Of a stretch of 64,000 nucleotides of DNA, positions 1 to 57,288 are shown piece by piece; positions within the stretch are counted from its first letter, which is position 1, and every line of letters starts with the position of its first letter. The position numbers and the translations under genes were made by a program. The notes under the pieces are model-generated. The model worked only from the letters and a program-made list of their open reading frames with translations. It was not told the DNA's origin and made no database searches. The stretch lies in IMG/VR virus record IMGVR_UViG_3300024996_000004. One strand, given 5' to 3'. The DNA comes from a virus.

Positions 1-258
1 TAATAAAATACTATTATTATCATTTGCTAATTTGTAAATATGAACTAAAGGTTTTCGATGAATTATTCCCCCATTAATATGCGCACATCGTGGACACCAT
101 GTATCTTTGGTAATTAATTGAGTTGGAGATACTTTCCATTGATGACCATATTCACATTCAACAAACAATTTATTTGAATAAGTTTTAATATCAGTTAATA
201 ATTTTCCATTATGTAATTGTATTCATATAATTTTTGGGTTATTTACTATTTATTCCAA

Positions 259-287
259 TTGACAGGAATTGTTATATAGTTTACTAT
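259..287 (+). promoter_or_regulatory. sigma70-type early promoter
   Basis: TTGACA-N17-TACTAT upstream of an AGGAG RBS. Confidence 0.7.
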
Positions 288-497
288 TAACATATCTTAA
301 ATTCTTAGGAGAAATTTATGACAAGTTCATGGGATGTGAGTTATGATGCTCAACAAAGACTGGTAAGATTGAAAAATCTAAATATGAAAAATCTAAAGAT
401 GACGAGCATGAATTCAAAACTTACGGATCATGGTATTCTATTTGGAAAGAATATACTCACGGTAAAGTGACCACTTATTCAAAATAAAGAGAAATTT

Positions 498-884
498 ATG
501 GACAACAAAATTTTTAATGTTAATGGCAGAAGTAAAGAATGTTTTAAGCTTGCGTTACAATTATTACTTTCTCAAGAAGAATTTAATAAACCTAAAATTC
601 ATGCATGGTCAATTAATCCTCATAAAGGATTAATACTGTACAATTATCACAGCGGAGATTCCATCGCATTTCCAATACCATTGTCATGTGATGCTGTTGT
701 TGATATGGTGTGGGAATGGTTGCAAAATGATGAATCAAAGAAAATTGAATTGGATAATATTGACAAAAATTCCGTTGGATTTGATGGTTCAATTGCGAAG
801 GGCTGGCGTGTTTATCTTGAACAAGATTCGCCGTCTAATGTTCTAGGAATTATTACGCCATCGCACTTATATTATGGCAAATAA
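498..884 (+). CDS. hypothetical protein
   Basis: 128 aa ORF, overlaps next gene. Confidence 0.7.
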   Translation: MDNKIFNVNGRSKECFKLALQLLLSQEEFNKPKIHAWSINPHKGLILYNYHSGDSIAFPIPLSCDAVVDMVWEWLQNDESKKIELDNIDKNSVGFDGSIAKGWRVYLEQDSPSNVLGIITPSHLYYGK

Positions 885-1149
885 TATGAAAGTAAATTAC
901 ACAGAAACCATTGACAAAGTAGTTGATATCAAACCAGTAGAAATTATTGCATGTGCTGCCGATGCTTTTGAAAAACATAATGATCTTGAACTTAGATGGT
1001 TGGATGCCGAAAACATGATATGTCAAAACGGTAAATATGGACTCGAATGCTTATTCAAAGCATCTCCGAGACAAATTGACGCATTTAAAATTATCAAATT
1101 AATTAAAGAATATAAATCAACTTATATTGTTGAAAAACATGATTACTGA
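874..1149 (+). CDS. hypothetical protein
   Basis: 91 aa ORF in tightly packed run. Confidence 0.6.
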   Translation: MANNMKVNYTETIDKVVDIKPVEIIACAADAFEKHNDLELRWLDAENMICQNGKYGLECLFKASPRQIDAFKIIKLIKEYKSTYIVEKHDY

Positions 1150-1747
1150 AATCTTACTAAGAACATATTCATCAAAATATGAATTGATGGAAAAATTTAA
1201 AAACGCTATCTTAGATAATACTAATTTATCTGTAAAATTGATAGACCACTCAAATCTTTCTATCGAAGATTTTGAACATACTGAACAAGAAACGTTGATC
1301 AGTGTAGATGAATTTATTTCTAAAAAATTAGATATTCCATATTATAGGATGTCTAGAGTGTTTAATAATCATGGTGATGTTATTGGTAAGTATGAACAAG
1401 GAATAATCACTGAAACGGGGAATAATGTTAGAGTTCTTGACTCTGACATGGTACGAGGCGACACTATACAACGTGCATGTACTACATTCAAAACTACTAA
1501 ATTTTTTGTTCCTCTTGTCGTTAGATCATACCAAGATTTGATTGATGTTGAAGATATTGTAGAAAATAAATCAATTATATTAGTTGAAGATCAATTAAAA
1601 TTAATAAATTTATACAACATAAATCTTGCACGTTTCGCTTATAGTTATTTGCATAATAAAGAGTTCTTTTGTAAAAGAACTTCATTACCCGAACATATGT
1701 ATGATATTTTTCACGATATAAAGAATGAACATGAAAATTATTATTAA
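1139..1747 (+). CDS. putative phosphoribosyltransferase-fold protein
   Basis: VRVLDSDMVRGDTI resembles the type I PRTase PRPP loop (hhhhDD...TGxT); ATG 1139 preferred. Confidence 0.4.
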   Translation: MITEILLRTYSSKYELMEKFKNAILDNTNLSVKLIDHSNLSIEDFEHTEQETLISVDEFISKKLDIPYYRMSRVFNNHGDVIGKYEQGIITETGNNVRVLDSDMVRGDTIQRACTTFKTTKFFVPLVVRSYQDLIDVEDIVENKSIILVEDQLKLINLYNINLARFAYSYLHNKEFFCKRTSLPEHMYDIFHDIKNEHENYY

Positions 1748-1756
1748 GGATTAATT

Positions 1757-2101
1757 ATGGATAAGTGGCTACCCATTAGTAAAGCTCCGAAAGATGGCAC
1801 TATGATTTTGGTAACAGAAACTCCTAATGGAGAAGCTTGGAATGTCATTCCCGCGTGTTGGATGGCTTTAACAAGTCAAGAGCAATCGGATAAGGAATTT
1901 TTTGAGAACGGAGGATTACCACCCAATAATAGTCATAAAGGCAGTTGGTGGGGAATTTGTGCTACACGATGGTCTAGAGAAGGACCATTATACACAAGAT
2001 TTAAACCGTTAGCTTGTACACCCGTTTGTTGGATGCATTTTCCTGAAATGGAATCTGAAACGAAATTGAATCGTAGAATGTCTCAATTGTATAGAAATTA
2101 A
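1757..2101 (+). CDS. DUF551-like phage protein
   Basis: WLPISKAPKDGT N-terminus and P.CWM.FP C-terminus. Confidence 0.6.
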   Translation: MDKWLPISKAPKDGTMILVTETPNGEAWNVIPACWMALTSQEQSDKEFFENGGLPPNNSHKGSWWGICATRWSREGPLYTRFKPLACTPVCWMHFPEMESETKLNRRMSQLYRN

Positions 2102-2103
2102 AA

Positions 2104-2973
2104 ATGAAAAATGAAAACTTTAACTCATTGATTGAACAAATAAAACGATGGTTTCATGATAGAACCCTAAATCATGCAGTGATTGGATATTCTGGTGGAA
2201 TTGATTCTGCTACTACTGCTGCATTATTGGATGCTGCGGAAATTCCTACAACAATTGTTTCTATAAACATCGAAAATCAAATAAAATCATCGAATTATGA
2301 TGTTTTTGATTTTGCAAAACAATATGATTTTTTAACAGCTATTGATATGAATTTGCCGATGCCAATATTTCGTTTTGATGCTGGTAGAGAAGCAGCATTA
2401 CCTATTTTGCGAAATGCTTGTTTATATGGAGTCGTAGCTGAATATAAAATATATAAAGGATTTAATCCCGTTACAGTTGGAACTGCCAACTTTGACGAAT
2501 CGAGTTATTTAGGATTTTGGGGTAAGGCATCCGATGCAGCACAAGATTTTTATCCTATCAGTCATTTACATAAGTCTGAAGTAGTACAGTTGGCAAAATA
2601 TCTTAAGGTTCCAGTAGAAATTATTAATGCTGTTCCATCTGGTGATTTACAATGGTCTGGTGAATTGAATGATTTAAAAATGATTGGATGTGATTACAAT
2701 ACTGTTGAACAAATAGCAAATATGGCAAAATCTAATGTTAAACTAGATGAAATAGCTTCTGTTATTATTAAAATGCCTGATGCGAAAAAATTTATCAGTA
2801 ACGTATTAAGAAATGAATTTAAATATACTTTACCGTTTCCAAATTGGCATTTAAGTCCATTGTTAGAAGATTTTCGTCGCTATGCATATAAGAATGTGTT
2901 AGAAGCTTGCAAATTAACTAGGATTGAATTATTTGAGAATAAAAATCCACAATTTTTTTCATCTCATCAATAG
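2104..2973 (+). CDS. nadE: NH3-dependent NAD+ synthetase
   Basis: SGGIDS PP-loop, GTANFDE..LGFWGK, HKSEV..LA, PSGDL motifs. Confidence 0.85.
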   Translation: MKNENFNSLIEQIKRWFHDRTLNHAVIGYSGGIDSATTAALLDAAEIPTTIVSINIENQIKSSNYDVFDFAKQYDFLTAIDMNLPMPIFRFDAGREAALPILRNACLYGVVAEYKIYKGFNPVTVGTANFDESSYLGFWGKASDAAQDFYPISHLHKSEVVQLAKYLKVPVEIINAVPSGDLQWSGELNDLKMIGCDYNTVEQIANMAKSNVKLDEIASVIIKMPDAKKFISNVLRNEFKYTLPFPNWHLSPLLEDFRRYAYKNVLEACKLTRIELFENKNPQFFSSHQ

Positions 2974-3265
2974 TTGCATTAGATTTCAATTTATTTGCAC
3001 GATATGATATTACAATAACATTATCCAATGAATATCCTTTAGAAGAATCTATTCTATCGAAACTTATGGAATTATCTTCTACTTTGTGTCTATTAAAATG
3101 CAATGGAATTCCAAGAATAGGACATACGATAGGAATTCCTATTTCATCCATGTCTGATAACAATAATGTAAATGGTATGTCACGTTTTTTGGCGGATGAT
3201 TTTAAATTACTCCATAAAAGCTTGAAATCCTTTTGAGTAATATGTAAACTATTAGTGTTCATCAA
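2918..3265 (-). CDS. HNH-type (homing) endonuclease
   Basis: CPILG...SISFDRIDSSKGYSLDNV.VIS..AN..K; antisense insertion in an operon. Confidence 0.75.
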   Translation of the reverse strand: MMNTNSLHITQKDFKLLWSNLKSSAKKRDIPFTLLLSDMDEIGIPIVCPILGIPLHFNRHKVEDNSISFDRIDSSKGYSLDNVIVISYRANKLKSNATIDEMKKIVDFYSQIIQS

Positions 3266-3307
3266 GCTATTTATTAATCAAAATAATCGATATAATGAGG
3301 AAATATT

Positions 3308-3685
3308 ATGCTCAAACAGACTGATCGTATACGCGGACGACGTAAAGCCAAATTTTATATCTATCGCAACTTGAACCATGGAAAATTGTTTTCAATAAGA
3401 TATAAAGGGAAAGTTATTGATCGTTTAGACGATTTTATAGCTTATGAATGTGATATGAAAGTCAACCCAAGTGGACGAGCTAGAACACTTGCATATAAGA
3501 CTAAAAATGTTCATGCTTTCGTTGTTACCGATGCATATGAAACAATGAATGATCATGAATTAATAAATGATCATGAATTAAAATATAATCCATATAATTC
3601 TGAATATTTTCAATGTGATGGGAAAACTATTCATTATGCAGATGCAATTTTGTTTAAAAATGGGAAAGCTTATGTTCTTACTTAA
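3308..3685 (+). CDS. conserved phage hypothetical protein
   Basis: YRNL..FSI, GR.R..KNVHAFV, YNPY pattern typical of a widespread phage family. Confidence 0.65.
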   Translation: MLKQTDRIRGRRKAKFYIYRNLNHGKLFSIRYKGKVIDRLDDFIAYECDMKVNPSGRARTLAYKTKNVHAFVVTDAYETMNDHELINDHELKYNPYNSEYFQCDGKTIHYADAILFKNGKAYVLT

Positions 3686-3699
3686 AAAGAGTTTACAAC

Positions 3700-4491
3700 A
3701 TGCATGATATTAATCGTTATTATGGAGATAATAAACCTTCATGGAATCCTGTGACATTGGAAGAAATTCCAACAGATATGCATGTTGAAAAAATTCAAGT
3801 AACTGTGGGAACGACTTCATGGCCTGTTTATATCGCTAACAATGTATTTTCGGAACAATTCTGCAATGATCTGATCAAACAATTTGATCAACAAGAAGCT
3901 TATCCTGTAGGTATTGATGGATATTGCAATGCGTCAGAGAATATAGGAAGTTATCGTGCTATGGCATGGACTTCAGAATTAGCGTATATTATTTCAGAAA
4001 AACTTAGAAATGCTATGTCAAATTCTTTAGTGGTATCAGGATTAAATTTACCGTATCCATGGCCCAATTCTATGCGTTTACCGTTTTGTCATCATGTAAA
4101 TCAATATATCATGATAGGATCAACACCATTTTTACGATTCATGAAATATAAATCTGGTGGAATGCATGTTCCGCATCATGATGCCCCATATGAAAATAAA
4201 AATGAAAAATATATAACTATGTTTTCATATGTGTTATATTTGAATACTCCAAGAGGAAAAGGTGGAGAATTTCAATTTATTAATGACACAAGAAATATAA
4301 ACAATCAACATTTTCCTGATCAATGGGACATATCAGATTGGACAGAAATGTCTAATGATGTCATTATGAGCATCAATCCTGAACGTGGAAAATTATTAAT
4401 TTTTCCTCATTGGTTATGTCATCAAGTTCAAAAATACGTTGGGGAAGGATATCGTTATATCATTAGGGGAGACGTGGCTTATGGTTATTGA
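3700..4491 (+). CDS. 2OG-Fe(II) oxygenase (prolyl-hydroxylase-like)
   Basis: MKY..GG.H.PHHD, YLN...GGEF, G.LLIFPH...H.V, RY.IRGD. Confidence 0.85.
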   Translation: MHDINRYYGDNKPSWNPVTLEEIPTDMHVEKIQVTVGTTSWPVYIANNVFSEQFCNDLIKQFDQQEAYPVGIDGYCNASENIGSYRAMAWTSELAYIISEKLRNAMSNSLVVSGLNLPYPWPNSMRLPFCHHVNQYIMIGSTPFLRFMKYKSGGMHVPHHDAPYENKNEKYITMFSYVLYLNTPRGKGGEFQFINDTRNINNQHFPDQWDISDWTEMSNDVIMSINPERGKLLIFPHWLCHQVQKYVGEGYRYIIRGDVAYGY

Positions 4492-5146
4492 AGAACCATG
4501 GTACAAAAAACTTGAAGAAAAGTATGGTTATGATTTCTGTAAATTAGCTGGATATTTTGAAGAAGATCGTACATGGACAGATGTTTACGGACATTCATAT
4601 GCAGATACTTTTAAACTTCCTAATGACACTACGGTAATTCAATTTTCCGGTGCATTTTATCCTTTCCATGAAGGACATCTGTCTATTATCCTACGAGCTA
4701 TAGACGAAATTTGTGATAAAACAGAGTTTTCGTCCAATGGAGTAGTTATTTTGCACGTTGATCACAAAAGATATCGAACATCAAAAGGAAAGTATAATGA
4801 AGAAAAATTTATAAAATCATTTGATTTATTTACAAAATCATTTCCCTATAAGAATTTCACTGGACAAATAATTTTTGAAGATGATATGTTTTTAAGTTGT
4901 TCAAGAAACTTTACACGACTATATGCTGAGTTAGTTAATAAACGGAATAAAGTCTATTTCTTGTCGGGTGGTGATCGTGCTAATTATGCTTTAACTTTTA
5001 AAGATGATGGTTATTGTATTATATCTGGCAGAAATTCTGATGAGAAATTCAATGTATATAAAAACACTTTAAGTTCTGATAGAATATGGTTTCTTGATGG
5101 AGAACATCCTGCATCTTCCACGGAAATTAGAAAACAATCTCAATAG
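4481..5146 (+). CDS. HxGH nucleotidyltransferase (NadD/NadM-like cytidylyl/adenylyltransferase family)
   Basis: SGAFYPFHEGH, GGDR, C-terminal SSTEIR; start overlaps oxygenase stop. Confidence 0.75.
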   Translation: MVIEEPWYKKLEEKYGYDFCKLAGYFEEDRTWTDVYGHSYADTFKLPNDTTVIQFSGAFYPFHEGHLSIILRAIDEICDKTEFSSNGVVILHVDHKRYRTSKGKYNEEKFIKSFDLFTKSFPYKNFTGQIIFEDDMFLSCSRNFTRLYAELVNKRNKVYFLSGGDRANYALTFKDDGYCIISGRNSDEKFNVYKNTLSSDRIWFLDGEHPASSTEIRKQSQ

Positions 5147-5177
5147 GACAACAATATTAATTTTTAAAGTTCGTAAA

Positions 5178-5483
5178 CTATTGAGATTTTAAAATATAAT
5201 CGAGAACATATCCAACATTATTATTCAAATAATCCATTACAGTTCGATAATCTTCACTATCGCCGTCGAAATCATTGTCACCATCTCTACCAACTATGGA
5301 TTCAATCTTATATTTTTTGGTATTTTTATCAATAGTTAAATCTATTAAATATTGAACATCTGTGCGTTCATCTAATAGAAGAAAGCTTCCATTAACAGTA
5401 TCACCATTGTCTGAAAATAATGTTGCGCTTATTACTTCAAAATCATCTTTGTATAATGACTCATAAAGAGTTTGTATTCTCAT
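5178..5483 (-). CDS. hypothetical acidic protein, possible internal virion protein
   Basis: MRIQTLYES leader; coupled to the 1221 aa gene. Confidence 0.55.
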   Translation of the reverse strand: MRIQTLYESLYKDDFEVISATLFSDNGDTVNGSFLLLDERTDVQYLIDLTIDKNTKKYKIESIVGRDGDNDFDGDSEDYRTVMDYLNNNVGYVLDYILKSQ

Positions 5484-8400
5484 ATCACATTACCTAAATT
5501 GTTTGTTGAAAATGTGAGAACACCGTTGGATGTTGAAGTATAGCCAACACCCGGAGTTACAACCACATTACCACTATTTATAGTCACATTATATGATGTA
5601 GAAGATGACAAACCTGTAACAACATGCAAAGCTGCCACATTCGGATTCTGATAAGTAATATTTGTGGTATCCGCAAATGCAACAACTTGATCACCATCAG
5701 CACCAGCTAAATGAATAGCATAAGCAGATGAAGCTAATACTGTAATGTTTGATGATGTAGAAGCCATGTCAAATACAGTCAACCATTTTTGTTTTAATGA
5801 ATTGGTTGGAGTACGTAATTGAACATTCCAAACTTTGGGTTGAGAATCGGAAGGATAAACTTTTGTTACTGTAGCTGTTGTAGCTGGCAATACTGAAGTC
5901 ATAGAACCGACATAAGAACCTTTATAAGTAATACCAAATTGTGTTCCAGATATGAGAGTAGGATTAGCTGGAAAATTCCATGATGTGTATTGATCAAAAT
6001 TAATATTTCCCGTTTCAGTTCTATCTAACACAATGAAACGATTTGGACGAAGATACACAATTTCTCTACTCCAACCTACAACGCCATCATTAGCAGAGAA
6101 AGTTTTATACATTTGTTCAATGTTATTTCCCTTAATCCATACATAATTTCCATTATCTTCAAGAGTAGTATCAGTGATGACTCCATCATATTCAGCACTA
6201 AAACTACTTTGACCAAAGCTTTGATTAATTTTGGTTCCAGTAACATCTCTCACGTAAAATAAATTATAACATTGAGCATTACCAACATATTGAGTACCGT
6301 TAAAGCTGCCCAATAAATCATTGTATAATAATGTTTCATCGTTAGCACCATTTGGTTCATGAATAGCCCAGCCATAGGTGTTTACAAGTAAAGGAACATT
6401 TCCATTTACTAAAGCCAAACTACCTTGATCATAACCTTCTTCAGCCTGTTCAGGGTTATCCGCATATGAACTAGCTCTAAAACTTAACCATTTGGCCGAT
6501 GTTGTCCAATCTGATCTTGCAGCGACTGCACCCAACCCCATTGCTTTATAAGATAATGGCAAAGTATTTAAAGGTTTTACAGGTAATGAACTATTACCTT
6601 CAAGCATGGCAACCCACGATTCAGCTGAGGCAAAATTATTCGTAGCAGCATTCACCGATTGTAGATATTGATTAAATACGTCAACATTAGGTCTATTCCA
6701 ATAAACCAATTCACCGAGTATTTGTTTCACCATTCCAGTAGGAACTGTTCCAACAGGTGGTGTAGCTACTCCATTAGCATGATTCGTGTCTCTATCATCA
6801 AAATAATCTAATGAAGGCCATGTGAAATGCATTGCATAATCGGCCATATCTACAGGATAAGTATAAGGTATTGAAGTTGAATTTATTACATCAATACCAG
6901 TAGCAGTCTTTAGTTCTCTTGCAGGAAGACTCATATTCAAAACAGCTTGAGGTCCATAGTTACCAAAACCTTCAGGCCATCCACCACCTGTCATATGTTT
7001 TAGGAAATATGGTTGAACTCTTGATAAAAATTGATTACCATACCAATCCTGCCACATTTTTGCTCCATTAGGATTATCTTCATAGGTAGCTAATGTTATA
7101 GCACATTTTGCATGAAAGTATCCTGCATAATAATTGCATAATGGATGACTATAAGCAAAATTTGATCTAGAATTAGGATTTTCCCAACTATCAACCCATA
7201 TATTAGCAGTAGTTATTACTTGTTGACGTTGTGTAGGAGTCAATAATTCATACAACCAATCATATCCTATTCCAAAACCAACACCATAGAATTTTATGAC
7301 GAAGCCATCATCGGTTTGAGGATCACAACCTTTATTTCCACTTCCTGTAGTATATGGAGTAGCCATAGCCATTAAGATTTCAACAGCTTTAGCACCATAT
7401 ACTGCGGCTGATGCTGGATCACTTATCTTTAATATTTGATATGCCAAGGCCACATTTAGCAATTCTGGCAAATAATTTTCACCTTGATAACCACTACCGA
7501 TATTAGGGAGAGTAGGATAAGCATCTTCAACAGGAAGGTTAACTTTTCCACCATTATAACTATCGCATATGGATTTCAAAGTAACCCATTCTGGATCATT
7601 ATTAGTCATTTTTAAACGAAGATTATCCAAAGTAGTATTATCTAGGATCAATCTAGGATGGGCAGCAAGCACTGGTGCAGAAACGATACTACGCGAAGTC
7701 GTAGGTGTCGGTGTAGGACTTACAGGAGTACTACCGCTCGCTACAGGTGTGCTACGTGGAGTGCCCGTAGGTGGAACTGGTGTAGGCGATGCAGGAGTAC
7801 CCGGAGCTAAGGCAATAAGTCTGCTATAGAAACCTACTCCTGTTGCACTTGTGACAGCTACAGCTGTTACTGCACCCGTCGAACCAGCATTAGGTTGTAA
7901 AATAGAGCTACATATCATGTTTTGAGACTTAACAACTCCCGGATTTGTTATTTGTTTGTATCCGGCTGGTGCAGTAAATATTGGATTAATGTTAGTATTA
8001 TAACTACTAGTACCAGCACTATTGATAATGACACAATTAGGAACAGTAGTAGTAATACCGGGATTAGTCATATTAATAGGAGAAGGAGTTGTTTTAGTGG
8101 TAGTTGCAACACTAGAAGCATTGATTCCAGAAACTCCCATCCAACGTTCACATACTACAACCCATCCGCTATCATTTGATCCATAAGTACTTGCAATAGT
8201 TGAAGGATCATTATCAGATGCTATTTTCCAATATGCACTAGTAACACTTCCACCATCTCCGAATCGAGTTTCATCAATTAATGTAAATCCAGTAGGAGTA
8301 TTGGCACCGCCCGGAGCGCTAACAGTTAATAACAATATTCCACCTTTTCCGCTTGGTAATGAAACGCTCCAATCCATTGCTGTACCATTAGATGTGGTAA

Positions 8401-9145
8401 ACGAAGCTCGTGTGATTGTTGATGAGGAAGTGTTAGGTGTTTGAGTAACTGAAATGCTTGGTGTAACAGTTGGTTCAGGAGTTTTTGATATCGATATAGT
8501 TGGTGTTACTGATATAGTTGGTGTTACTGATATAGTTGGTGTTACTGATATAGTTGGTGTTACTGATATAGTTGGTGTTACAGTAACGTCAGGAGTGACG
8601 GATATTGTTGGTGTTACTGTAATTTCAGGTGTTGCTGATATTTCGGGTGTTACTGATATAGTTGGAGTTACCGATACTTCTGGCGTAACAGATATAGTTG
8701 GTGTTACGGTAACGTCAGGAGTGACGGATATAGTTGGTGTTACTGTAATTTCAGGAGTAACAGATATGGTTGGAGTAACAACAGGTGTTGTGGTCACTTC
8801 AGGTGTTATAGACACAGAAGGTGTAACAGTTGGTTCAGGTGTAACACTAGGAGTTACGAAACCTAGAATTCTCAAAGCGTCTGCTTGACTAGCTGCACTT
8901 AACAACAATTGACCGAATAATTGACCATCATCAGTTCCTTTAACAATAACATCTAAACCAGCTTCTGGCGTAGGAGTTTCTGGAATATAAACAATGCTTA
9001 ACTGGCTTTGCATCACAGCAGCATTAAATTCTGCAACAGAATACTCTCCTATGTTAACATCAGGGATGTAAGTTATAGAATTTGGTGAAAAATCAACGTC
9101 ACTAATAGTAATAGTAACGGGAGTTAAATTATGAATTTGATACAT
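5480..9145 (-). CDS. large virion-associated protein with Pro/Thr linkers and heparinase II/III-like polysaccharide lyase module
   Basis: TPTISV repeats; HPRL, NYY.G, GGGWPEG..Y, ARSDW motifs; late promoter at 9182-9188. Confidence 0.6.
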   Translation of the reverse strand: MYQIHNLTPVTITISDVDFSPNSITYIPDVNIGEYSVAEFNAAVMQSQLSIVYIPETPTPEAGLDVIVKGTDDGQLFGQLLLSAASQADALRILGFVTPSVTPEPTVTPSVSITPEVTTTPVVTPTISVTPEITVTPTISVTPDVTVTPTISVTPEVSVTPTISVTPEISATPEITVTPTISVTPDVTVTPTISVTPTISVTPTISVTPTISVTPTISISKTPEPTVTPSISVTQTPNTSSSTITRASFTTSNGTAMDWSVSLPSGKGGILLLTVSAPGGANTPTGFTLIDETRFGDGGSVTSAYWKIASDNDPSTIASTYGSNDSGWVVVCERWMGVSGINASSVATTTKTTPSPINMTNPGITTTVPNCVIINSAGTSSYNTNINPIFTAPAGYKQITNPGVVKSQNMICSSILQPNAGSTGAVTAVAVTSATGVGFYSRLIALAPGTPASPTPVPPTGTPRSTPVASGSTPVSPTPTPTTSRSIVSAPVLAAHPRLILDNTTLDNLRLKMTNNDPEWVTLKSICDSYNGGKVNLPVEDAYPTLPNIGSGYQGENYLPELLNVALAYQILKISDPASAAVYGAKAVEILMAMATPYTTGSGNKGCDPQTDDGFVIKFYGVGFGIGYDWLYELLTPTQRQQVITTANIWVDSWENPNSRSNFAYSHPLCNYYAGYFHAKCAITLATYEDNPNGAKMWQDWYGNQFLSRVQPYFLKHMTGGGWPEGFGNYGPQAVLNMSLPARELKTATGIDVINSTSIPYTYPVDMADYAMHFTWPSLDYFDDRDTNHANGVATPPVGTVPTGMVKQILGELVYWNRPNVDVFNQYLQSVNAATNNFASAESWVAMLEGNSSLPVKPLNTLPLSYKAMGLGAVAARSDWTTSAKWLSFRASSYADNPEQAEEGYDQGSLALVNGNVPLLVNTYGWAIHEPNGANDETLLYNDLLGSFNGTQYVGNAQCYNLFYVRDVTGTKINQSFGQSSFSAEYDGVITDTTLEDNGNYVWIKGNNIEQMYKTFSANDGVVGWSREIVYLRPNRFIVLDRTETGNINFDQYTSWNFPANPTLISGTQFGITYKGSYVGSMTSVLPATTATVTKVYPSDSQPKVWNVQLRTPTNSLKQKWLTVFDMASTSSNITVLASSAYAIHLAGADGDQVVAFADTTNITYQNPNVAALHVVTGLSSSTSYNVTINSGNVVVTPGVGYTSTSNGVLTFSTNNLGNVI
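8493..8582 (-). repeat. 18-bp coding tandem repeat (VTPTIS)x5 within a longer degenerate array (~8455-8855)
   Basis: GATATAGTTGGTGTTACT repeated on + strand. Confidence 0.9.
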
Positions 9146-9227: not shown

Positions 9228-9692
9228 ATGGTTGCCTTAAATGAAAAAAGAATTCGATGGGATAAATATTATTTGAAACAACTTGAAATCGTGAAAGATA
9301 AATCTAAAGATAATTCAACGAAAGTAGGTTCTATTATTGTAGGTGCATTTGATCAAGTTGTTTCTACTGGATTCAATGGATTCCCGCATGATGTTTATGA
9401 TGATATAAACGATTATCCACATCGTTATGAAAGACCTTTGAAGTATAATTTAACAGTGCACGCCGAATGTAATGCTATTTGTTTGGCAGCACGAACTGGA
9501 ACTCCGTTAAATGGTTCTAGAATATATTGTAACTTGTTTCCCTGTACTGAATGCGCTAAGATGATCATTCAAGCTGGGATTATTGAAGTTATAACTTATA
9601 AAGCGCCAGATTTGAAAGAATGGAATTTTGATATATCGAAAATGATGTTTGAAGAAGCTAAGATAAAGGTCACTGAATATGAAATTGAATGA
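9228..9692 (+). CDS. dCMP deaminase
   Basis: S.D.STKVG, GFNG.P, HAE.NAI, PCTECAK. Confidence 0.9.
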   Translation: MVALNEKRIRWDKYYLKQLEIVKDKSKDNSTKVGSIIVGAFDQVVSTGFNGFPHDVYDDINDYPHRYERPLKYNLTVHAECNAICLAARTGTPLNGSRIYCNLFPCTECAKMIIQAGIIEVITYKAPDLKEWNFDISKMMFEEAKIKVTEYEIE

Positions 9693-10191
9693 TATTAAAC
9701 CTATACCTGAACGTCTATCGCTATTGATGTTAATAGGATTACCGGGAAGCGGAAAATCAACTTGGGTAGAAAATTTTCTTAGAACCACCGATAAGAAGTA
9801 TGTTGTGTTATCCACGGATACTATTATTGAAAGAATGGCAAAAGAAATGGGGACGACTTATAGTGAAATATGGTCAAGTGCCATTGATGAAGCTACTCGC
9901 GAGAATTATGCAAATTTTAAAACTGCAATTAAGAATCAACAAAATATTATTTGGGATCAAACCAATCTTACATCAAGAAAACGTATAAACGTTTTGTCAA
10001 ATGTTGGATCACTTTATGAAAAAGTGGCAGTTACTTTCGAGCTTCCATTAGATATAATCTTTGAGAGAGTTGAAAATCGTGCAAAAGAAACTGATAAAAA
10101 TATTCCTAAAAACATATTAATAAATATGCAAAAGAGTTACGTAAAACCATCATTAGATGAAGGTTTCGATAAAATAATTAAGGGTAATTAA
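9679..10191 (+). CDS. P-loop kinase (AAA_33 / polynucleotide kinase-like)
   Basis: GLPGSGKST, STD, WDQTNL...R, P..DEGFD. Confidence 0.85.
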   Translation: MKLNDIKPIPERLSLLMLIGLPGSGKSTWVENFLRTTDKKYVVLSTDTIIERMAKEMGTTYSEIWSSAIDEATRENYANFKTAIKNQQNIIWDQTNLTSRKRINVLSNVGSLYEKVAVTFELPLDIIFERVENRAKETDKNIPKNILINMQKSYVKPSLDEGFDKIIKGN

Positions 10192-10200
10192 AGGATTTTT

Positions 10201-10833
10201 ATGCAACATTACAATAAAAGTAATCATGAAGTTAGCACAAGAATGCCAAAAGTTTTGGCATTAACTAGCACTGGAATGGCTTCCGGTTGGTTATCATTTG
10301 AAGATTATGCAACATTAGCGGCCAAGGATAAAATACTTTGGACTACACATAAGTATGCCGTTACTTTACATGGTGGGATTAATGCTAAAACAGGTCAACA
10401 ATCTGTATTAGAAATGGATACCATTGCTGCTATTAAATCGGATAAAAATAAACTTAATGGAAGAATAGATTATGCCCCTGCATTAACTAATAGAACACTA
10501 TTTGAACGTGATAGAAATATGTGTGCTTATTGTGGAAATGTTTATCCGACTTCAAAACTTAGTCGTGATCATGTTATTCCTGTAAGTCGTGGTGGTAAGG
10601 ATAAATGGACTAATGTAGTTACTTCTTGCTTAACCTGTAACCATTGGAAGTCTGATTCTCTGTTAGAAGAAATTGAATTAGTCTTACTCTATGTACCATA
10701 TCGTCCAAGTTTTTATGAACATTTGATTCTACAAAATAGAAATATCACGGCAGATCAAATGGAATTCTTGTTGAAAGGTGTAAGCGAACATAGTAGAGTT
10801 TACAAAGAGTATAGTGCTAAAATGGCTGCATAA
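10201..10833 (+). CDS. HNH endonuclease (McrA/HNH_5 type)
   Basis: LFERD..CAYCG..SRDHVIP.SRGG...W.N.V.SC..CN..K. Confidence 0.9.
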   Translation: MQHYNKSNHEVSTRMPKVLALTSTGMASGWLSFEDYATLAAKDKILWTTHKYAVTLHGGINAKTGQQSVLEMDTIAAIKSDKNKLNGRIDYAPALTNRTLFERDRNMCAYCGNVYPTSKLSRDHVIPVSRGGKDKWTNVVTSCLTCNHWKSDSLLEEIELVLLYVPYRPSFYEHLILQNRNITADQMEFLLKGVSEHSRVYKEYSAKMAA

Positions 10834-19258: not shown

Positions 19259-19266
19259 TATAAATA
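19259..19266 (+). promoter_or_regulatory. T4-type late promoter driving tmRNA
   Basis: TATAAATA just upstream of the tmRNA acceptor piece. Confidence 0.6.
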
Positions 19267-19271
19267 GTTTT

Positions 19272-19605
19272 AATGATTGTGTGGATGGAAACATCCTGAA
19301 AATTGATCAATAAAGTGGTTGCGGACGTGGGTTCGAGTCCCACCATTTCCACCAAATGTAGCTTGAAAGCACAAAAGGCTGAAAGCATAAGCGGATACTT
19401 GGGATTAGCGCCAAGCAGGCTACATTTGATGGGGATGCATTGGTTTCGACGTGGCTGGTAATAGGTGAAATTACAATCCGTTCAGAATGGTACGTTATAC
19501 CTTAAATAAAGCAAATGCTAATGATTCGTCATTCGCTCTAAACGATTACGCACTAGCTGCCTAATCCAATTTAGATGGGGTTTAAATCGACCTTATTACC
19601 CAATG
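19272..19605 (+). ncRNA. ssrA: circularly permuted (two-piece) tmRNA
   Basis: T-arm and CATTTCC-A-CCA end at 19354, before the 5' end GGGGATGCATTGGTTTCGAC at 19431; G3.U70; tag (AN)ANDSSFALNDYALAA* at 19511/19517-19564; outer ends approximate. Confidence 0.9.
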
Positions 19606-19608
19606 ATT

Positions 19609-19642
19609 AAAATAATGGCTCCTTTCGGAGCCATTATTTTTT
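19609..19642. terminator. bidirectional intrinsic terminator
   Basis: AAATAATGGCTCC-TTTC-GGAGCCATTATTT. Confidence 0.85.
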
Positions 19643-19656
19643 GTAACACAATTACA

Positions 19657-21800: not shown

Positions 21801-21998
21801 ATGCAAGATTTCCAGCAACGAGTAATAGATGAAAAGTCAGAGCTTGATAACAAAATAGACAAGTTAGCGACATTTGTCGATTCAGACAAATTTGAAACTT
21901 TAAGCGCCAAAGACCGTTCATTATTATATCAACAATTAAATATTATGATTAATTATAGTGCAATTCTTGGCGCACGAATCGCAGGTTTCGAAATTTAA
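21801..21998 (+). CDS. Acb2-like (T4 Vs.4-like) cyclic-oligonucleotide sponge
   Basis: QQRVIDEKSEL..KI.KL..F...F..L......L..Q...M..YS.IL..RI; AGGAG RBS. Confidence 0.75.
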   Translation: MQDFQQRVIDEKSELDNKIDKLATFVDSDKFETLSAKDRSLLYQQLNIMINYSAILGARIAGFEI

Positions 21999-22011
21999 TC
22001 GGATCATTTTC

Positions 22012-23886
22012 ATGAATATTATTGAAGAGTTAATTTCACAATTAATCGAATATGATAATGCTTATCATAATGGAGATAGCGTTATTCCAGATGTGCAATA
22101 TGATCAATTAAAACGTGAAATTCAAAAACAAGCTCCCAATCACCCGTACTTCATTCAAGTAGGATCAGATGTTCGTGGAGGTAAAGTAAAATTACCTTAT
22201 AGCATGGGATCACTCAATCAAATTTATGAAAATGATTATGAAAAATGGTGCAATAAATTCAATCTTAAAAATGAATCCATTGTAGTTAGTCATAAATTGG
22301 ACGGTGTATCGTGCATGATCCAATATAAGGATGGCAAATTTAGAATAGCTTATTCTAGAGGCAATGGTGTAATGGGCGCAGATATCACTCGTCACGTATC
22401 CAAAATCATTAATCTTCCTAAAGATATTTCATTACGAGGTCATGTCACCATTCGTGGTGAATTGATTATGAAGAATGATACTTTTGAAAGGAATTGGAAG
22501 GATGAATTTGCTAATCCGAGAAATATGACAAGCGGTATTTTCAATCGATCAATTACGGATGAAGATGCTATTAAAGATATAGATTTTATTGCTTATCAAA
22601 TCGTAGACGGTAGTGATGAATTTAAAAAGTCGAGTCAAGTTGATGATATGCAGTTGCTTGATACACTAGGATTTACCACTGTTACATTAGAAACGGTTCG
22701 TGGAAGTAAATTGGATGATGATGAATTAACATCTATGCTGACTAAAGCTCGTCAAATATCTCCATATGAATTAGATGGCATTGTACTTACTATTAATGAG
22801 AAGAATGCCCAAAAGAATTTGAGCAATTCTTCCAGTCTTAATCCAGAACATTCAGTAAAATACAAAGTTTTGGACAAAAATTCTATTGTTGAAGCAGAAG
22901 TTGTGAATGTCAGTTATGAAATATCTAAACATGGCCTCTTTAAGCCTCGTGTAGAAATTATTCCTGTTCAGTTATTCGGAACTACTGTAACCTTCGCCAC
23001 GGGCTTTAATGGACGTTATATCAACGATAATAATATTGGTCCCGGAACTATTGTGAACATTACAAAAAGCGGGAGTGTGATACCACACATTTTAAATGTT
23101 GTCAAACCGACAAATGCACAACTTCCAATCAAAGAGTTGTGGGAATGGAATGAAAATGGCGTTGATATGGTTATTAACAACTATCAGAACAATCCTACAG
23201 TAATATTCAAACAAGTATTAGATTTTTTTAACACTTTAGAAGTGGATTTATTGAAAGAAGCATCAATAAAGAAAATCATCGATTACTGTGATATGAATGA
23301 TGAACCATACGAAACCATTCTTGCTGTTATGATAGATTTAACCGAGTTGGAATGGGAGAAAGCTATTGGTGCAAATGGATCAAAGATTTATGCCAGTTTA
23401 GAGAGAAAATTAAACACGTTAACTTTGGCTAGATATCTTGGTGCCGTTAAGTATTTTGGATCAGGATTTGGCGTAAGAAAAGCAAAATTGTTATTAAAAA
23501 ACCTGACTGACGAATCTTCTGTATGGAATTTAACAGTTCCGAAAATTATAGAATTTGAAGGATTCGATACAATAACTGCTGAAAAATTTGTGGACGGTTT
23601 GCGAGAAGCTTTAGAATTATCTAAAGAACTTGATTTAAAATTTAAACAAGAGGTCAAAACCAATGAATTACAACATTTGGTAGTTGTATTCACTGGATTC
23701 CGAGATAAGGAATTCCAAGATAAATTAGAAAAGACTGGTGCGAAGGTAGGTACATCAGTATCCAAAAAAACCACTCATGTTATTACAGCAGAACCTAATT
23801 CGATGTCAGGAAAAGCAGTAAAAGCTAGAGAACTTGGAATAAAAACTTTATCACTTGACGAATTCAAAGAAGAGTTTAATTTATGA
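22012..23886 (+). CDS. ligA: NAD-dependent DNA ligase
   Basis: YD.L, HKLDG, SRG.G..G.DIT, RGE, NPRN, DGIV, C-terminal BRCT. Confidence 0.92.
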   Translation: MNIIEELISQLIEYDNAYHNGDSVIPDVQYDQLKREIQKQAPNHPYFIQVGSDVRGGKVKLPYSMGSLNQIYENDYEKWCNKFNLKNESIVVSHKLDGVSCMIQYKDGKFRIAYSRGNGVMGADITRHVSKIINLPKDISLRGHVTIRGELIMKNDTFERNWKDEFANPRNMTSGIFNRSITDEDAIKDIDFIAYQIVDGSDEFKKSSQVDDMQLLDTLGFTTVTLETVRGSKLDDDELTSMLTKARQISPYELDGIVLTINEKNAQKNLSNSSSLNPEHSVKYKVLDKNSIVEAEVVNVSYEISKHGLFKPRVEIIPVQLFGTTVTFATGFNGRYINDNNIGPGTIVNITKSGSVIPHILNVVKPTNAQLPIKELWEWNENGVDMVINNYQNNPTVIFKQVLDFFNTLEVDLLKEASIKKIIDYCDMNDEPYETILAVMIDLTELEWEKAIGANGSKIYASLERKLNTLTLARYLGAVKYFGSGFGVRKAKLLLKNLTDESSVWNLTVPKIIEFEGFDTITAEKFVDGLREALELSKELDLKFKQEVKTNELQHLVVVFTGFRDKEFQDKLEKTGAKVGTSVSKKTTHVITAEPNSMSGKAVKARELGIKTLSLDEFKEEFNL

Positions 23887-51300: not shown

Positions 51301-51385
51301 AGAACCGTATGGGATTCGAACCCATGATAGGATTTCTCCCCGCAGATTGAAAGTCTGCTCACTTCAGCCACTTGTATAACGGTTC
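51301..51385 (-). tRNA. tRNA-Glu(UUC) anticodon on a class II (long variable arm) body, no encoded CCA
   Basis: GAACCGT/ACGGTTC acceptor, GCAGA-CTTTCAA-TCTGC, variable GGGA-GAAA-TCCT, TTCGAAT T-loop. Confidence 0.75.
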
Positions 51386-51399
51386 ACAATGTTTTATTT

Positions 51400-51427
51400 A
51401 TAGTAACACAGAAATTTTATTTGTCAA
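51400..51427 (-). promoter_or_regulatory. sigma70 promoter overlapping a late TATAAATA motif
   Basis: TTGACA-N16-TACTAT(AAATA). Confidence 0.65.
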
Positions 51428-51516
51428 CTGTTTAAATAGTATTTAAATAATTTGTGCGTGCATTAACCTTCAAATCAACGTCCAGCGCACGCTACTGTCG
51501 TCTACTTGCTGTCGCA

Positions 51517-51792
51517 TCACTGCGATAGTTTTCTTTTATCTAATATGTTTACAATATTTTCAAGAATATTAAGAAATTTGAAATAGGTTTCGTATTGATC
51601 AATAATAAATTGACCACTTTCTGTTATTGGTTTTCCGTTATATTTATTTAAATATGTTTTATACTCTTCATTTATAACTGATTTCAATCTAAAAATCTTA
51701 AATTTACAGTTTATTGGATCACACGAATAAATTACTTCATCTATTAATGTTAATATTTGAATGTAAAATTTATTAACATTCATATCGTTCAC
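51517..51792 (-). CDS. hypothetical protein
   Basis: 91 aa ORF. Confidence 0.5.
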   Translation of the reverse strand: MNDMNVNKFYIQILTLIDEVIYSCDPINCKFKIFRLKSVINEEYKTYLNKYNGKPITESGQFIIDQYETYFKFLNILENIVNILDKRKLSQ

Positions 51793-51793
51793 A

Positions 51794-52492
51794 TTAATCG
51801 CAAAGATGCAAGTATTTGCAGCCCGGAGAACCCAGCTGAATCAATGCTTGCAAAGCAATATCAGCACCGATAAGCAAGATGGAATCATCAAGAGTAGTCT
51901 TGGCAGCATTGACGGCAGTATAGGCCGCACTGGTAGCAGAATAGGCAGAATAGGCAGCATTGGTAGCATCGTCAACAGCATTGGCAGCAGCATGAGCAGC
52001 ATGAGCAGCATGAGCAGCATAAGCAGCATTGGTAGCATGATAAACAGCGTTGACAGCGGCACGGGAAGCTTCCGCATTGCCAAGTTCTTCACAATTCTTG
52101 GCAGCTTTATTCAATGCTTCAGCATGTTCAGGATTAGCATTAGCAGCATTTCGCAAAGCTATGGGCAGCACTCGACGGATTGTTTGATTTGTCACAATCT
52201 TTGCAAATGTTTTCTGGTCAATGTTATCACTACCAAGCTGCGCAACGGCCAGCTTGCGCATGCCAGCAGCACGCGCAGCATCGCTAGACCAATCAGCATC
52301 GTTCAATGCTATCTTAAATGCTCGCACAGCATTGCCAACACAAGTCGGTCGGTCGCTATGCGGGAGTCCTTGAGCATAACACACAGCAGCTTCCACGCAC
52401 ATCTGGCCCGGCACAGGTTGACCGATGCCATTGACCAGTCCCTGATCGACCACTGAAAGCAGCTTTTGAACAAATTTCTTAGTGATGTTCAT
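51794..52492 (-). CDS. family B paralog 2 (Ala-rich cassette)
   Basis: near-identical to 58594 outside the cassette. Confidence 0.85.
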   Translation of the reverse strand: MNITKKFVQKLLSVVDQGLVNGIGQPVPGQMCVEAAVCYAQGLPHSDRPTCVGNAVRAFKIALNDADWSSDAARAAGMRKLAVAQLGSDNIDQKTFAKIVTNQTIRRVLPIALRNAANANPEHAEALNKAAKNCEELGNAEASRAAVNAVYHATNAAYAAHAAHAAHAAANAVDDATNAAYSAYSATSAAYTAVNAAKTTLDDSILLIGADIALQALIQLGSPGCKYLHLCD

Positions 52493-52494
52493 GA

Positions 52495-53481
52495 TTAATC
52501 AATCCTATTAGTTAAATTAAGGAAGTATACTCTAGCCGTTTGCATAACCTGTTTTTGAATTTGTTTCCAATCAAATCCACTCGCTACAATAGCATTCATT
52601 TCTTCCTTAATAATATCATTCGCTATAAATTTCATGAATACGGGAATAGATTCTGGAAGAATGGGGAGTCCCTGTTCGATGACATGAGTCACACCTTGTT
52701 CCAATCTCCATTCAGGCAAAATAATATTCGTAAGATCGCGAATACTTTCCAATTTTTCATCAGAAATAATGATTTTTGGAGTTTTGGTTTTATCAGAACC
52801 TTTGTGGAGCAATCCTTTGGTTTTAAACCATAAATGTGAATTAGTAGGATCATCCTTTGCATGCCATACTAAACCTTCACCAGTCATATTCCCATCATTA
52901 ACATTAAATATTGAAGAAACCCACAAAGAACGTTCTTCAACTTCTAAAGTATACTTTTCCAATAATTCCGAAGCAGGAGTAGGATTCAAAAAATCTATTT
53001 CCACTTCAAATGTTGGAATCTGATAAATGTTGTAAATACCATTTTCATTATCATGAAGATCAGGAGGGAGTTCAATGTATTTAGCATATCCATCCTTGCC
53101 AGCTTTGGCAGCAAATAATACCCAATGTTTAGGTACTTGATTAAGTGCTACATGTTTTTGGATATTGCTTCCACACCATTCACCATATAAAGTGATATCT
53201 TGATCTGAAGGGAATCCTTCAAATAGTTTCTCTATAGCATCTTGATGTTGTGCACAAAACATGGCAAATCCATAATTATCAGAAGTGATATCTAAGATAC
53301 GTTCGCGCGATTGAGGATAAAATTTTCCACTTGCACTGCGTCTATAACCACAGTTTGAGCCATGTAATTTTTCAGTGCCGATAAAGGTGATAGTTGGGTA
53401 CGATTTACCAATTTTATCATAATACTTTCTAATGTTGGCTACAATATGTTTAAACGATTCAATTGATGTGAATTTTTCCAT
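52495..53481 (-). CDS. RNA ligase 2 (Rnl2) family
   Basis: EKLHGSN, QSR, YGEW.G, GEGLVW, FK.KG; start MEKF at 53481 (track start lies inside the tRNA). Confidence 0.85.
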   Translation of the reverse strand: MEKFTSIESFKHIVANIRKYYDKIGKSYPTITFIGTEKLHGSNCGYRRSASGKFYPQSRERILDITSDNYGFAMFCAQHQDAIEKLFEGFPSDQDITLYGEWCGSNIQKHVALNQVPKHWVLFAAKAGKDGYAKYIELPPDLHDNENGIYNIYQIPTFEVEIDFLNPTPASELLEKYTLEVEERSLWVSSIFNVNDGNMTGEGLVWHAKDDPTNSHLWFKTKGLLHKGSDKTKTPKIIISDEKLESIRDLTNIILPEWRLEQGVTHVIEQGLPILPESIPVFMKFIANDIIKEEMNAIVASGFDWKQIQKQVMQTARVYFLNLTNRID

Positions 53482-53510
53482 GATGCTCACTTTTAAGTTT
53501 GTCATTAAAT

Positions 53511-53592
53511 TGGCGACCCCGGCAGGATTCGAACCTGCATACTCCAATTACTCGGTTAACGTCCGTTTAGAAGACGGATGAGATACGAGGCC
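53511..53592 (-). tRNA. D-armless tRNA-Arg(UCU)-like RNA with expanded variable region
   Basis: GGCCTCG/CGGGGTC-G-CCA, 7-nt connector in place of D arm, TCCGT-CTTCTAA-ACGGA, canonical T arm. Confidence 0.7.
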
Positions 53593-53602
53593 ATGAAATT
53601 AC

Positions 53603-53630
53603 ATTATATAGTGTTATTGAGCGTTGTCAA
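53603..53630 (-). promoter_or_regulatory. consensus sigma70 promoter for D-armless tRNA and Rnl2
   Basis: TTGACA-N16-TATAAT. Confidence 0.8.
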
Positions 53631-53972
53631 CACTTGTTGAACAAGTTCAATAGAATCAAAGAGTTGACAATCGGCATCTTTAATATTTTTAAAATCATTT
53701 ATCATACTATCATAAATGTCACTGCTCATTGTATTAAACCCTATTCGAGTTTTATTAAGTGTGTACAATGATCCACTGTCTGTTTCAACTATAAAATATT
53801 TATCATCTTCTGTAAATTTAATAATGTGTGAAGATAATCTCCATGATGAACCATAAAGATAACCACCTGACCACCCTGATAAAATTTTAATAGTCATTTT
53901 ATCAAGGTGACTAATTTTTAATATAACCCATTTATCGGGTGATATTGAATGTGAAGATTCTAAAGATTTCAT
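53604..53972 (-). CDS. conserved phage hypothetical protein
   Basis: PDKWVILK, GWSGGYL.GSSWRLSS, SGS.Y. Confidence 0.7.
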   Translation of the reverse strand: MKSLESSHSISPDKWVILKISHLDKMTIKILSGWSGGYLYGSSWRLSSHIIKFTEDDKYFIVETDSGSLYTLNKTRIGFNTMSSDIYDSMINDFKNIKDADCQLFDSIELVQQVLTTLNNTI

Positions 53973-53981
53973 ATTATTTTC

Positions 53982-54581
53982 TTAATATTTCATAGCTTTT
54001 TTAGCTAATTTTATTAAATCAATGTCATAGACAGCATTGACGGCAGCATATCTTGCAGCATAGGCAGCATTGGTAGCAGCATCGGCAGCATAATAAGCAG
54101 CATAAACAGCAGCGTAGGTAGCATAGGCAGCATTATAAGCAACAGAAGCCATATTAGGAACAGTCTCTGTGGTGCTGGCACTTCTATCTTTATTAGACAA
54201 CCAATTATCAGCCCATGTCACAAATGATGGTTCTTTATAAACTTCAAGAGCGCACAAAATAGCAAATATCACTTTTTGGATATCAGTAACCACTGACAAT
54301 GCTATTCCTTTCTTGGTTGTCAATTTTGTGAATCCAATTTTCAATCCATGATCAGATTTTTTCATTCCTGAACCATAAGCCTCCCAGAGCTTAGGGTTAC
54401 TGATATTGGCATGCATTGGATTAAGCAATACTGCCAATAATGGATGAGAGTAAGCATGTAACCATCCAGCGGAACACAATTCTCCTTCACCCGAAGTAGT
54501 ATGAGAAATTCCTTCTCTCCATAATGTATCATTCATGATGAAGTTGTCTTGTGTCGTCAATTTATAACATTTCGTTGCCAC
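53982..54581 (-). CDS. family A paralog 2
   Basis: paralog of 45915. Confidence 0.85.
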   Translation of the reverse strand: MATKCYKLTTQDNFIMNDTLWREGISHTTSGEGELCSAGWLHAYSHPLLAVLLNPMHANISNPKLWEAYGSGMKKSDHGLKIGFTKLTTKKGIALSVVTDIQKVIFAILCALEVYKEPSFVTWADNWLSNKDRSASTTETVPNMASVAYNAAYATYAAVYAAYYAADAATNAAYAARYAAVNAVYDIDLIKLAKKAMKY

Positions 54582-54590
54582 CGATTTATT

Positions 54591-54776
54591 CTACTTTTTC
54601 TTTTGAAGTTTTGTTTTATTTTTTCCTACGTTATAAGTACCTTTCTTAACTGACCAAAACATTTTTGTACGACTACGCAAAAATGCGGCCAACGTATTAC
54701 GGTTTTGACGATATTTACGTTCTACTGATACTTCAGGAGTTTCTTCGATACTTTCTGGTACAATTTCTTCATTCAT
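54591..54776 (-). CDS. small basic hypothetical protein
   Basis: GAGGA RBS, own promoter. Confidence 0.6.
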   Translation of the reverse strand: MNEEIVPESIEETPEVSVERKYRQNRNTLAAFLRSRTKMFWSVKKGTYNVGKNKTKLQKKK

Positions 54777-54894
54777 TAAGTATTATCCTCTATAGGATAT
54801 GATTGTATAACAGGTTTTAGTCATAGTCAACTATAACTTTTATGGCAATTAAAAAGAAAAAAATTCCATCTTAAAAAGATGGAATTTTTTTAAT

Positions 54895-54968
54895 TGGCAG
54901 GCAGTGTAGGAATCGAACCTACGTATTTCGGGTCAAAGCCGAACTCTCTACCATTGAGATAACCGCCT
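54895..54968 (-). tRNA. tRNA-Gln(UUG)
   Basis: cloverleaf, TTCGG-CTTTGAC-CCGAA, G73-CCA. Confidence 0.9.
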
Positions 54969-54976
54969 AAATATTT

Positions 54977-55309: not shown

Positions 55310-55419
55310 TTATTTATTCTAACAGGAAGATTGTTTTAATTTCAATTTTAATTTCAATTATTATGATTGATTATTATGTAATTGTAACATAATTTAATAT
55401 TGAAGTCAACTGTATAATG

Positions 55420-55662: not shown

Positions 55663-55694
55663 ATCATTAATTCCAATTGTGTATAATTAATATA

Positions 55695-57284: not shown

Positions 57285-57288
57285 ATTT

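Follow-up and report, generated by a model that had tools for sequence, protein, structure and literature searches.

What would a jumbo phage gain from a second set of NAD-like enzymes, one of them an oxygenase, beside the complete NAD-restoring route that it already holds? The question is raised by positions 1139-5146 of a 64,000-nucleotide stretch of viral DNA (IMG/VR record IMGVR_UViG_3300024996_000004; the whole stretch is hereafter the window). A first-pass annotation of this DNA had proposed a new NAD-related phage pathway built from a phosphoribosyltransferase (PRTase)-like protein, an NAD synthetase (NadE), a 2-oxoglutarate (2OG)-Fe(II) oxygenase and an adenylyltransferase. Bacteria very commonly fight phages by depleting NAD, and reports since 2024 have described three pathways, NARP1-3, by which phages restore it. 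We see that the four genes form a module that recurs, with several gene fusions, in other genomes. We read their products as one pathway that would make a nicotinamide-type adenine dinucleotide from a free base, phosphoribosyl pyrophosphate (PRPP), ATP and ammonia, with NAD+ as the end product; this reading is tentative, and we put it a little short of an even chance.

A four-gene module recurs in phages and bacteria

The first gene of the module, X (1139-1747, + strand; ATG start), encodes a divergent type I PRTase-like protein of 202 amino acids (aa), assigned by fold model and motifs. It is followed on the same strand by genes for a NadE-like, NH3-dependent NAD (or nicotinamide mononucleotide, NMN) synthetase of the PP-loop ATP pyrophosphatase kind (2104-2973), a prolyl-4-hydroxylase-like 2OG-Fe(II) oxygenase (3700-4491) and a divergent NadD/NMNAT-like adenylyltransferase of 221 aa, here called the nucleotidyltransferase or NTase (4481-5146), whose reading frame opens with an ATG at 4481, ahead of the oxygenase stop at 4491, so that the two genes overlap. 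This overlap and the PRPP-loop-like, NadE, H-x-D...H and HxGH...SSTEIR motifs from which the first-pass annotation had argued are all present at these positions. The four genes had also been described as co-oriented and closely spaced. Their shared orientation is borne out, but they are not contiguous: seven open reading frames (ORFs) lie between 1139 and 5146, and the three that are not candidate pathway enzymes (a 114-aa ORF, an antisense HNH gene and an ORF resembling gp82 of mycobacteriophage L5) are interposed among the four that are.

Loci were fetched through X or the NTase alone, and were then scored for the other module genes. X, NadE and the oxygenase lie within 10 kb of the NTase in all 10 of the other lineages recovered with an A1-type NTase, namely loci L001, L002, L013 (Burkholderia stagnalis), L015 (a metagenome-assembled genome, MAG, of Pseudobdellovibrionaceae) and L017-L022. 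Three gene orders are seen. In type 1, found in jumbo phages including the one studied here, the order is NADAR, NMNAT-Nudix, Nampt, X, NadE, antisense HNH, oxygenase, NTase. Type 2 has overlapping genes in the order NadE-oxygenase-NTase-X, and is carried by Burkholderia stagnalis, the Pseudobdellovibrionaceae MAG, a contig with nusA-infB and other phages. In type 3 the oxygenase gene is followed by an X::NadE fusion, with no NTase nearby. GC content ranges from 32 to 67% over the type 1 and type 2 loci, and the grouping of the four genes is far beyond chance. A search of L020-L022 for further conserved partners found none.

The genes also fuse with one another, a point that the first-pass annotation had proposed to check. 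X::NadE fusions are represented by proteins P0095 and P0101 (485 and 495 aa) and NTase::X fusions by P0102-P0104 (447-580 aa), while a NadE::oxygenase fusion of 550 aa in L026 adjoins an NTase::X gene, so that four domains are held in two genes. That X::NadE, NTase::X and NadE::oxygenase fusions all exist argues that the four proteins act as one functional unit. A three-gene core is present in the cultured Acinetobacter phage vB_AbaM_ME3 (ME3_298, ME3_299 and ME3_305), where its genes are annotated simply as a 2OG oxygenase, a hypothetical protein and an NAD synthetase.

The module lies beside NAD-supply genes

The position of the module ties it to NAD biology, a connection that had been proposed from the four genes themselves. 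In the studied phage, Nampt ends 148 nt before the window start and is preceded by NMNAT-Nudix and NADAR, the three forming an NAD/ADP-ribose island upstream of the window (L003 4788-8714). The same three genes stand directly upstream of the module in L001, L002 and L017-L019, and Nampt precedes the type 3 module in L010. On the contig of P0104, which is of bacterial type, a NadD-like gene and a gene for an NrtR-type winged-helix regulator lie beside the module. The phage would itself be a consumer of NAD, as the first-pass annotation had argued from an NAD-dependent DNA ligase; this gene is real, and is located at 21958-23886 (+) with PF01653, PF03120 and BRCT domains.

The module does not stand in place of NARP2, since the phage has a complete NARP2 as well as NADAR upstream of the window; it is additional to NARP2 rather than one form of it. 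Further upstream of the island, L003 also carries a lipase-like gene and a Fer2_BFD gene.

X is probably a divergent type I phosphoribosyltransferase

Residues 97-109 of X, VRVLDSDMVRGDT, resemble a PRPP-binding loop (D101-x-D103...G107-x-T109), and further motifs are SRVF (72-75), DLIDxED (133-139) and KRTS (179-182). A canonical type I PRPP loop has four hydrophobic and two acidic residues, two variable positions and then [ST]Gx[ST]. The loop of X departs from this at the second acidic position, which is Ser, to give D-S-D. Across the family D101 and D103 are invariant and G107 is nearly so, and T109 is invariant in the six closest homologues. In the fused relatives of X the loops are of the canonical DDDxAxGxT type (ILDDDSASGGT, IEDDIASGQT and VDDDIATGFT). 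Alignment of the X loop to that of human APRT gives an E value of 0.58, which is not significant.

X has no match in Pfam, PHROG or NCBIfam; among 39 homologues, one reaches PF15609 (E 0.001) and one PF00156 (E 0.033). The family is small: 49 representatives came from a set of 1.8 billion proteins. A tblastn search of X against 50,697 cultured phage records returned no match, and the ME3 copy surfaced only through the X::NadE fusion protein. Structural comparison was the check that had been proposed for this protein, and its outcome is a modest but consistent resemblance to type I PRTases. The AF2 model is confident (pLDDT 94.5), and approximately 20 of the 21 chains with Z ≥ 5 in VIA-align have the type I PRTase fold (HGXPRT, XGPRT, OPRT, PRPP synthetase, UPRT and similar). 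The best match is HGXPRT 4z1o, at Z 6.8 with a root-mean-square deviation (rmsd) of 4.6 over 131 aligned residues, a Z range in which chance arrangements occur too. Foldseek matches are weak (E 2e-3, TM 0.24-0.35) and nearly all PRTases. Overall, the case for reading X as a divergent type I PRTase is moderate rather than strong.

In the ESM Atlas, the X model superimposes (TM 0.77 over 188 residues) on part of a cluster of 611-aa proteins from candidate-phylum bacteria. Most members of this cluster carry a HAD phosphatase domain (PF08282), which may be a further fusion partner of X.

The adenylyltransferase and NadE resemble enzymes of NAD synthesis

The NTase carries the motifs GAFYPFHEGH (57-66) and SSTEIR (212-217), in which 24 homologues show no variation at G57, F59, P61, H63, G65, H66, S212, S213 and R217. 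Among a total of 47 homologues, most of them from long phage contigs, there is little variation in GAFxPxHxGH, SSTxxR and several motifs particular to the family. Two of the invariant family-specific motifs, HVDHxxYRxSKG and CSRNFTRLY, lie outside the HxGH and SSTxxR elements that are common to other HxGH nucleotidyltransferases. An NTase alignment found matches in only two of 185,579 species genomes, and tblastn against the cultured phage records gave none.

Structure prediction had been suggested for this gene as well. With an AF2 model of pLDDT 94.3, ranks 1-49 among the Foldseek matches listed are all NadD/NMNAT, as are the top 10 chains in VIA-align (Z 9.1-12.6; the best with rmsd 3.3 over 173 aligned residues). 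Other HxGH transferases score lower, with phosphopantetheine adenylyltransferase (PPAT) at Z 8.3 and FAD synthetase at Z 7.9. The NTase nevertheless misses the curated NadD and Pfam cut-offs, so that it is NadD-like in its predicted fold without being a NadD equivalog.

NadE aligns to positions 3-242 of the 242 in PF02540 (E 4.9e-25; 88.5 bits against a cut-off of 21) and scores 79.5 bits with TIGR00552, for which the cut-off is 63.65. Its motifs SGGIDS (30-35), GTANFDE (126-132) and GKASDAAQD (140-148) align with those of Francisella NadE, and 11 unfused module copies share them in the form SGGIDS, GTxNFDE and GKASDxxxD. Among solved structures, the best match is to the Francisella NadE (3fiu; E 1.7e-16), which acts as an NMN synthetase (PMC12143786). 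This match makes amidation possible at either the mononucleotide or the dinucleotide stage, and the sequence of the predicted synthetase does not tell whether its substrate would be nicotinate adenine dinucleotide (NaAD) or nicotinate mononucleotide (NaMN).

An oxidative enzyme is an obligatory part of the module

The oxygenase matches PF13640 with 40.5 bits (cut-off 27), and PF13759 too. Its active site comprises the HxD...H iron triad (H159-x-D161 and H237/H241) and R252, the candidate basic residue for the 2OG C5 carboxylate, and these positions are invariant in 13 module copies. Four additional residues, R86, R146, H156 and R256, are also invariant, and would suit an anionic small-molecule substrate. 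A predicted complex of NadE with the oxygenase scored 0.00, which speaks neither for nor against binding.

The oxygenase is never missing from oxygenase-type modules. One lineage (L036, L037 and L040) has no module oxygenase within 6 kb; instead, a radical S-adenosylmethionine (radical-SAM) gene lies there, 83 nt upstream of NadE-NTase::X (PF04055, 36 bits, above the cut-off). In this single lineage, an O2-dependent enzyme looks to have been swapped for an O2-independent one that serves the same step. The replacement speaks for genuine C-H activation of an intermediate in the pathway and against a side activity in protein modification, and it makes two other roles for the oxygenase, ammonia supply to NadE and demethylation of trigonelline, less attractive. 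The radical-SAM-type locus occurs in two assemblies, and in one of them, L037, the NadE frame is broken into two parts (4853-5841), by either a frameshift or an assembly error.

A proposed pathway and its rivals

The predicted folds, the motifs, the co-occurrence, the fusions and the genomic context are what this analysis shows; from them we infer the substrates, the order of steps, the oxygenase reaction and the anti-defence role in the following scheme. X would join a pyridine-3-carboxylate-type base to PRPP to give an NaMN-like product, which the NadD-like NTase would adenylylate. NadE would amidate the carboxylate of the resulting dinucleotide or, equally possibly, would do so at the mononucleotide stage, as in Francisella. 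The oxygenase would add a single two-electron oxidation, of the base or of an intermediate, by which the nicotinate ring is unmasked or formed, and in at least one other lineage a radical-SAM enzyme would take over this oxidative step. The module would be a second, nicotinamide-independent supply line beside NARP2 and NADAR, one that would feed the NAD-dependent ligase of the phage and offset NAD-depleting defences.

A bolder form of the proposal, which we regard as possible if rather doubtful, is that the module represents a new kind of route to a dinucleotide, with a pyridine ring that is made or changed along the way by an Fe/2OG or radical-SAM enzyme. It would fit in two versions: NAD+ made from a precursor that known pathways do not use, or an NAD analogue that escapes NAD-cleaving immunity. 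In either case X would found a new type I PRTase family acting on a pyridine base. The first-pass annotation had offered both a deamido route to NAD and a modified pyridine dinucleotide, and both are tenable because the oxygenase is obligatory.

Several points weigh against synthesis of NAD+ by the module. The assignment of X as a PRTase rests on a Z of 6.8, without a Pfam match and with D-S-D in place of the usual acidic pair, and the NTase falls below curated cut-offs (PF01467, 16.1 bits against 21; TIGR00482, 14.7 against 112.45). To our knowledge, no route to NAD+ needs an oxygenase, and a dedicated oxidative enzyme that is always present is as readily explained by a modified product as by an unusual precursor. 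The phage already holds the complete NARP2 pair of Nampt and NMNAT-Nudix, and the Pseudobdellovibrionaceae MAG with the module also has a canonical NadD and a glutamine-type NadE. Housekeeping enzymes could process ordinary NaMN or NaAD, so a dedicated and divergent set hints at non-standard intermediates.

The same enzyme logic could yield not NAD+ but a modified pyridine dinucleotide, for instance one whose ring is hydroxylated or a pyridone, or one that is oxidised elsewhere, and this we consider unlikely, if still a serious contender. Such a molecule could be an NADase-resistant cofactor or AMP donor, an NADase decoy or inhibitor, or a specialised cofactor in carrier bacteria. In its favour, tailoring steps typically look like this one, with an obligatory oxygenase that in L026 is joined to NadE and in L036 gives way to a radical-SAM enzyme; NadD-like and NadE-like enzymes that have diverged strongly are kept beside canonical ones and beside NARP2; and the NTase has the invariant HVDHxxYRxSKG and CSRNFTRLY motifs of its own family. 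Against this, NadE scores above the NAD-synthetase equivalog-domain cut-off, the module is flanked by ordinary genes of NAD supply and by one for an NrtR-type regulator, which serves NAD homeostasis, and we know of no natural modified pyridine dinucleotide of such a kind. It is improbable that the base is not a pyridine at all, and that an orotate-like, purine-like or other carboxylated heterocycle is converted to a new nucleotide, amidated and oxidised, that might serve as an antimetabolite or in the modification of nucleic acids, the likeness to NAD enzymes being a matter of shared superfamilies alone. The nearest structural neighbours of X are indeed purine and orotate PRTases, not the type II nicotinate/nicotinamide enzymes, and X and the NTase both lie below all curated family thresholds, but the NTase is closer to NadD/NMNAT than to other HxGH transferases by 1-4 Z units, NadE matches NAD synthetase over its full length, and the module repeatedly adjoins Nampt, NMNAT-Nudix, NADAR and NrtR. 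We give still less credence to a plain Preiss-Handler pathway of X, NTase and NadE accompanied by an oxygenase that modifies or regulates proteins, in the manner of prolyl hydroxylases, or that helps NadE by releasing ammonia. The enzyme does belong to the prolyl-4-hydroxylase-like family PF13640, and its nearest solved relatives, at a weak E of 0.003, are bacterial protein prolyl hydroxylases. This very improbable role is at odds with the presence of the oxygenase in all aerobic-type copies of the module, with its fusion to NadE, with the radical-SAM gene at the same position in one lineage, and with the extra invariant Arg and His residues, which would favour a small anionic substrate.

Comparison with known routes to NAD

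The closest known counterpart is the Preiss-Handler pathway (PncB, NadD and NadE), in which a base is likewise phosphoribosylated with PRPP, adenylylated and amidated at its carboxylate by NadD-fold and NadE-family enzymes. The module differs in that its PRTase is small, divergent and type I-like, whereas PncB is type II (PF04095), and in having an obligatory fourth part (oxygenase or radical-SAM), a NadD-like enzyme that fails curated models, and fusions. The use of NadE by a phage is not in itself new, as jumbo phages are already on record with pncB-nadD-nadE clusters, which lack X and an oxygenase (PMC11662467).

NARP2 (Nampt/NadV with NMNAT-Nudix/NatV, of the vibriophage KVP40 type) also rebuilds NAD in phages through a PRPP-derived mononucleotide, and here occupies the same genomic island. 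It is, however, an amidated two-enzyme route that needs neither NadE nor an oxygenase, and the four genes of the module include no Nampt. NARP1 (Adps and Namat) and NARP3 (PnuC and NadR; PMC13464706) resemble the module in restoring phage NAD against NADase defences, and NARP1 also in re-purposing an enzyme of the PRPP-synthetase/PRTase fold. These two pathways start from ADP-ribose and nicotinamide riboside, respectively, and the module is without homologues of Adps, Namat, PnuC or NadR. NARP1 and NARP2 use other enzymes than the module does (Osterman et al., bioRxiv 10.1101/2024.02.11.579819). A survey of viral NAD and ADP-ribose systems mentions neither NadE nor a dioxygenase (PMC9503650), and literature searches on the four-enzyme module found no paper that describes it.

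The Francisella tularensis route, in which NadE converts NaMN to NMN before NadM acts, is relevant in two respects: the phage NadE has 3fiu as its best match among solved structures, and the phage also has a NadM-Nudix protein. The presence of the latter makes amidation at the mononucleotide stage possible, and the type 3 loci with no NTase nearby would fit such an order. Francisella uses neither an oxygenase nor a type I PRTase in this route.

The module would be a further, mechanistically distinct phage NAD pathway, with a previously unrecognised PRTase family and an oxidative step that has no counterpart in NAD biochemistry; its carriers include jumbo phages, the cultured Acinetobacter phage and a small number of bacteria. 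If NAD+ is what the module makes, it would provide a new entry point into NAD synthesis; if an analogue, a new natural cofactor or anti-defence molecule.

Interposed genes and genomic setting

The three interposed ORFs vary in how widely they are kept. The 114-aa ORF between X and NadE (1757-2101, +) matches no family in Pfam, PHROG or NCBIfam, and is present only in the studied phage and L018, being absent from L001, L002, L017 and L019. In L004 (8020-8462, corresponding to 1757-2104 of the window), a sister population of the same phage, an altered copy of 116 aa is followed by a 92-nt gap before NadE, an instance of small-scale variation inside the module. The antisense HNH endonuclease gene (2918-3265, -; phrog_3322, E 1.5e-31) overlaps the last 56 nt of NadE and is not a pathway enzyme. 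Its position is kept in six phage lineages (the studied phage, L001, L002 and L017-L019), and its nucleotide sequence is 71.5% identical to a part of Xanthomonas jumbo phage Xoo-sp13 that carries no annotation; it also resembles PHROG families named Srd anti-sigma factor. The accessory ORF similar to L5 gp82 (3308-3685, +; PF25735, E 7e-20) was found only in the studied phage's own contigs.

The window is a segment of a contig of about 295 kb that represents a jumbo phage and stems from metagenomes of bioreactors and wastewater. An Rfam scan of positions 1-6000 found no RNA family, and a promoter and terminator scan stayed at background level in this AT-rich DNA and gives no operon boundaries. 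Directly downstream of the module, on the opposite strand, lies a gene for a 1221-aa protein (5480-9145, -); long (VTPxIS)n repeats, rich in Pro and Thr, mark its sequence, for which no Pfam family is recorded. Beyond it, at 9228-10833 (+), are a dCMP deaminase-like gene, a kinase gene of the AAA_33/KTI12 type and a second HNH gene, a trio found after the module in L001 and L002 too. A separate RNA ligase (PF09414) is encoded at 52495-53547 (-). ARAGORN identified a permuted tmRNA at 19262-19655 (+), with the tag ANDSSFALNDYALAA, and nine tRNA genes at 51301-58518 (-), including a tRNA-Ile with the anticodon TAT.

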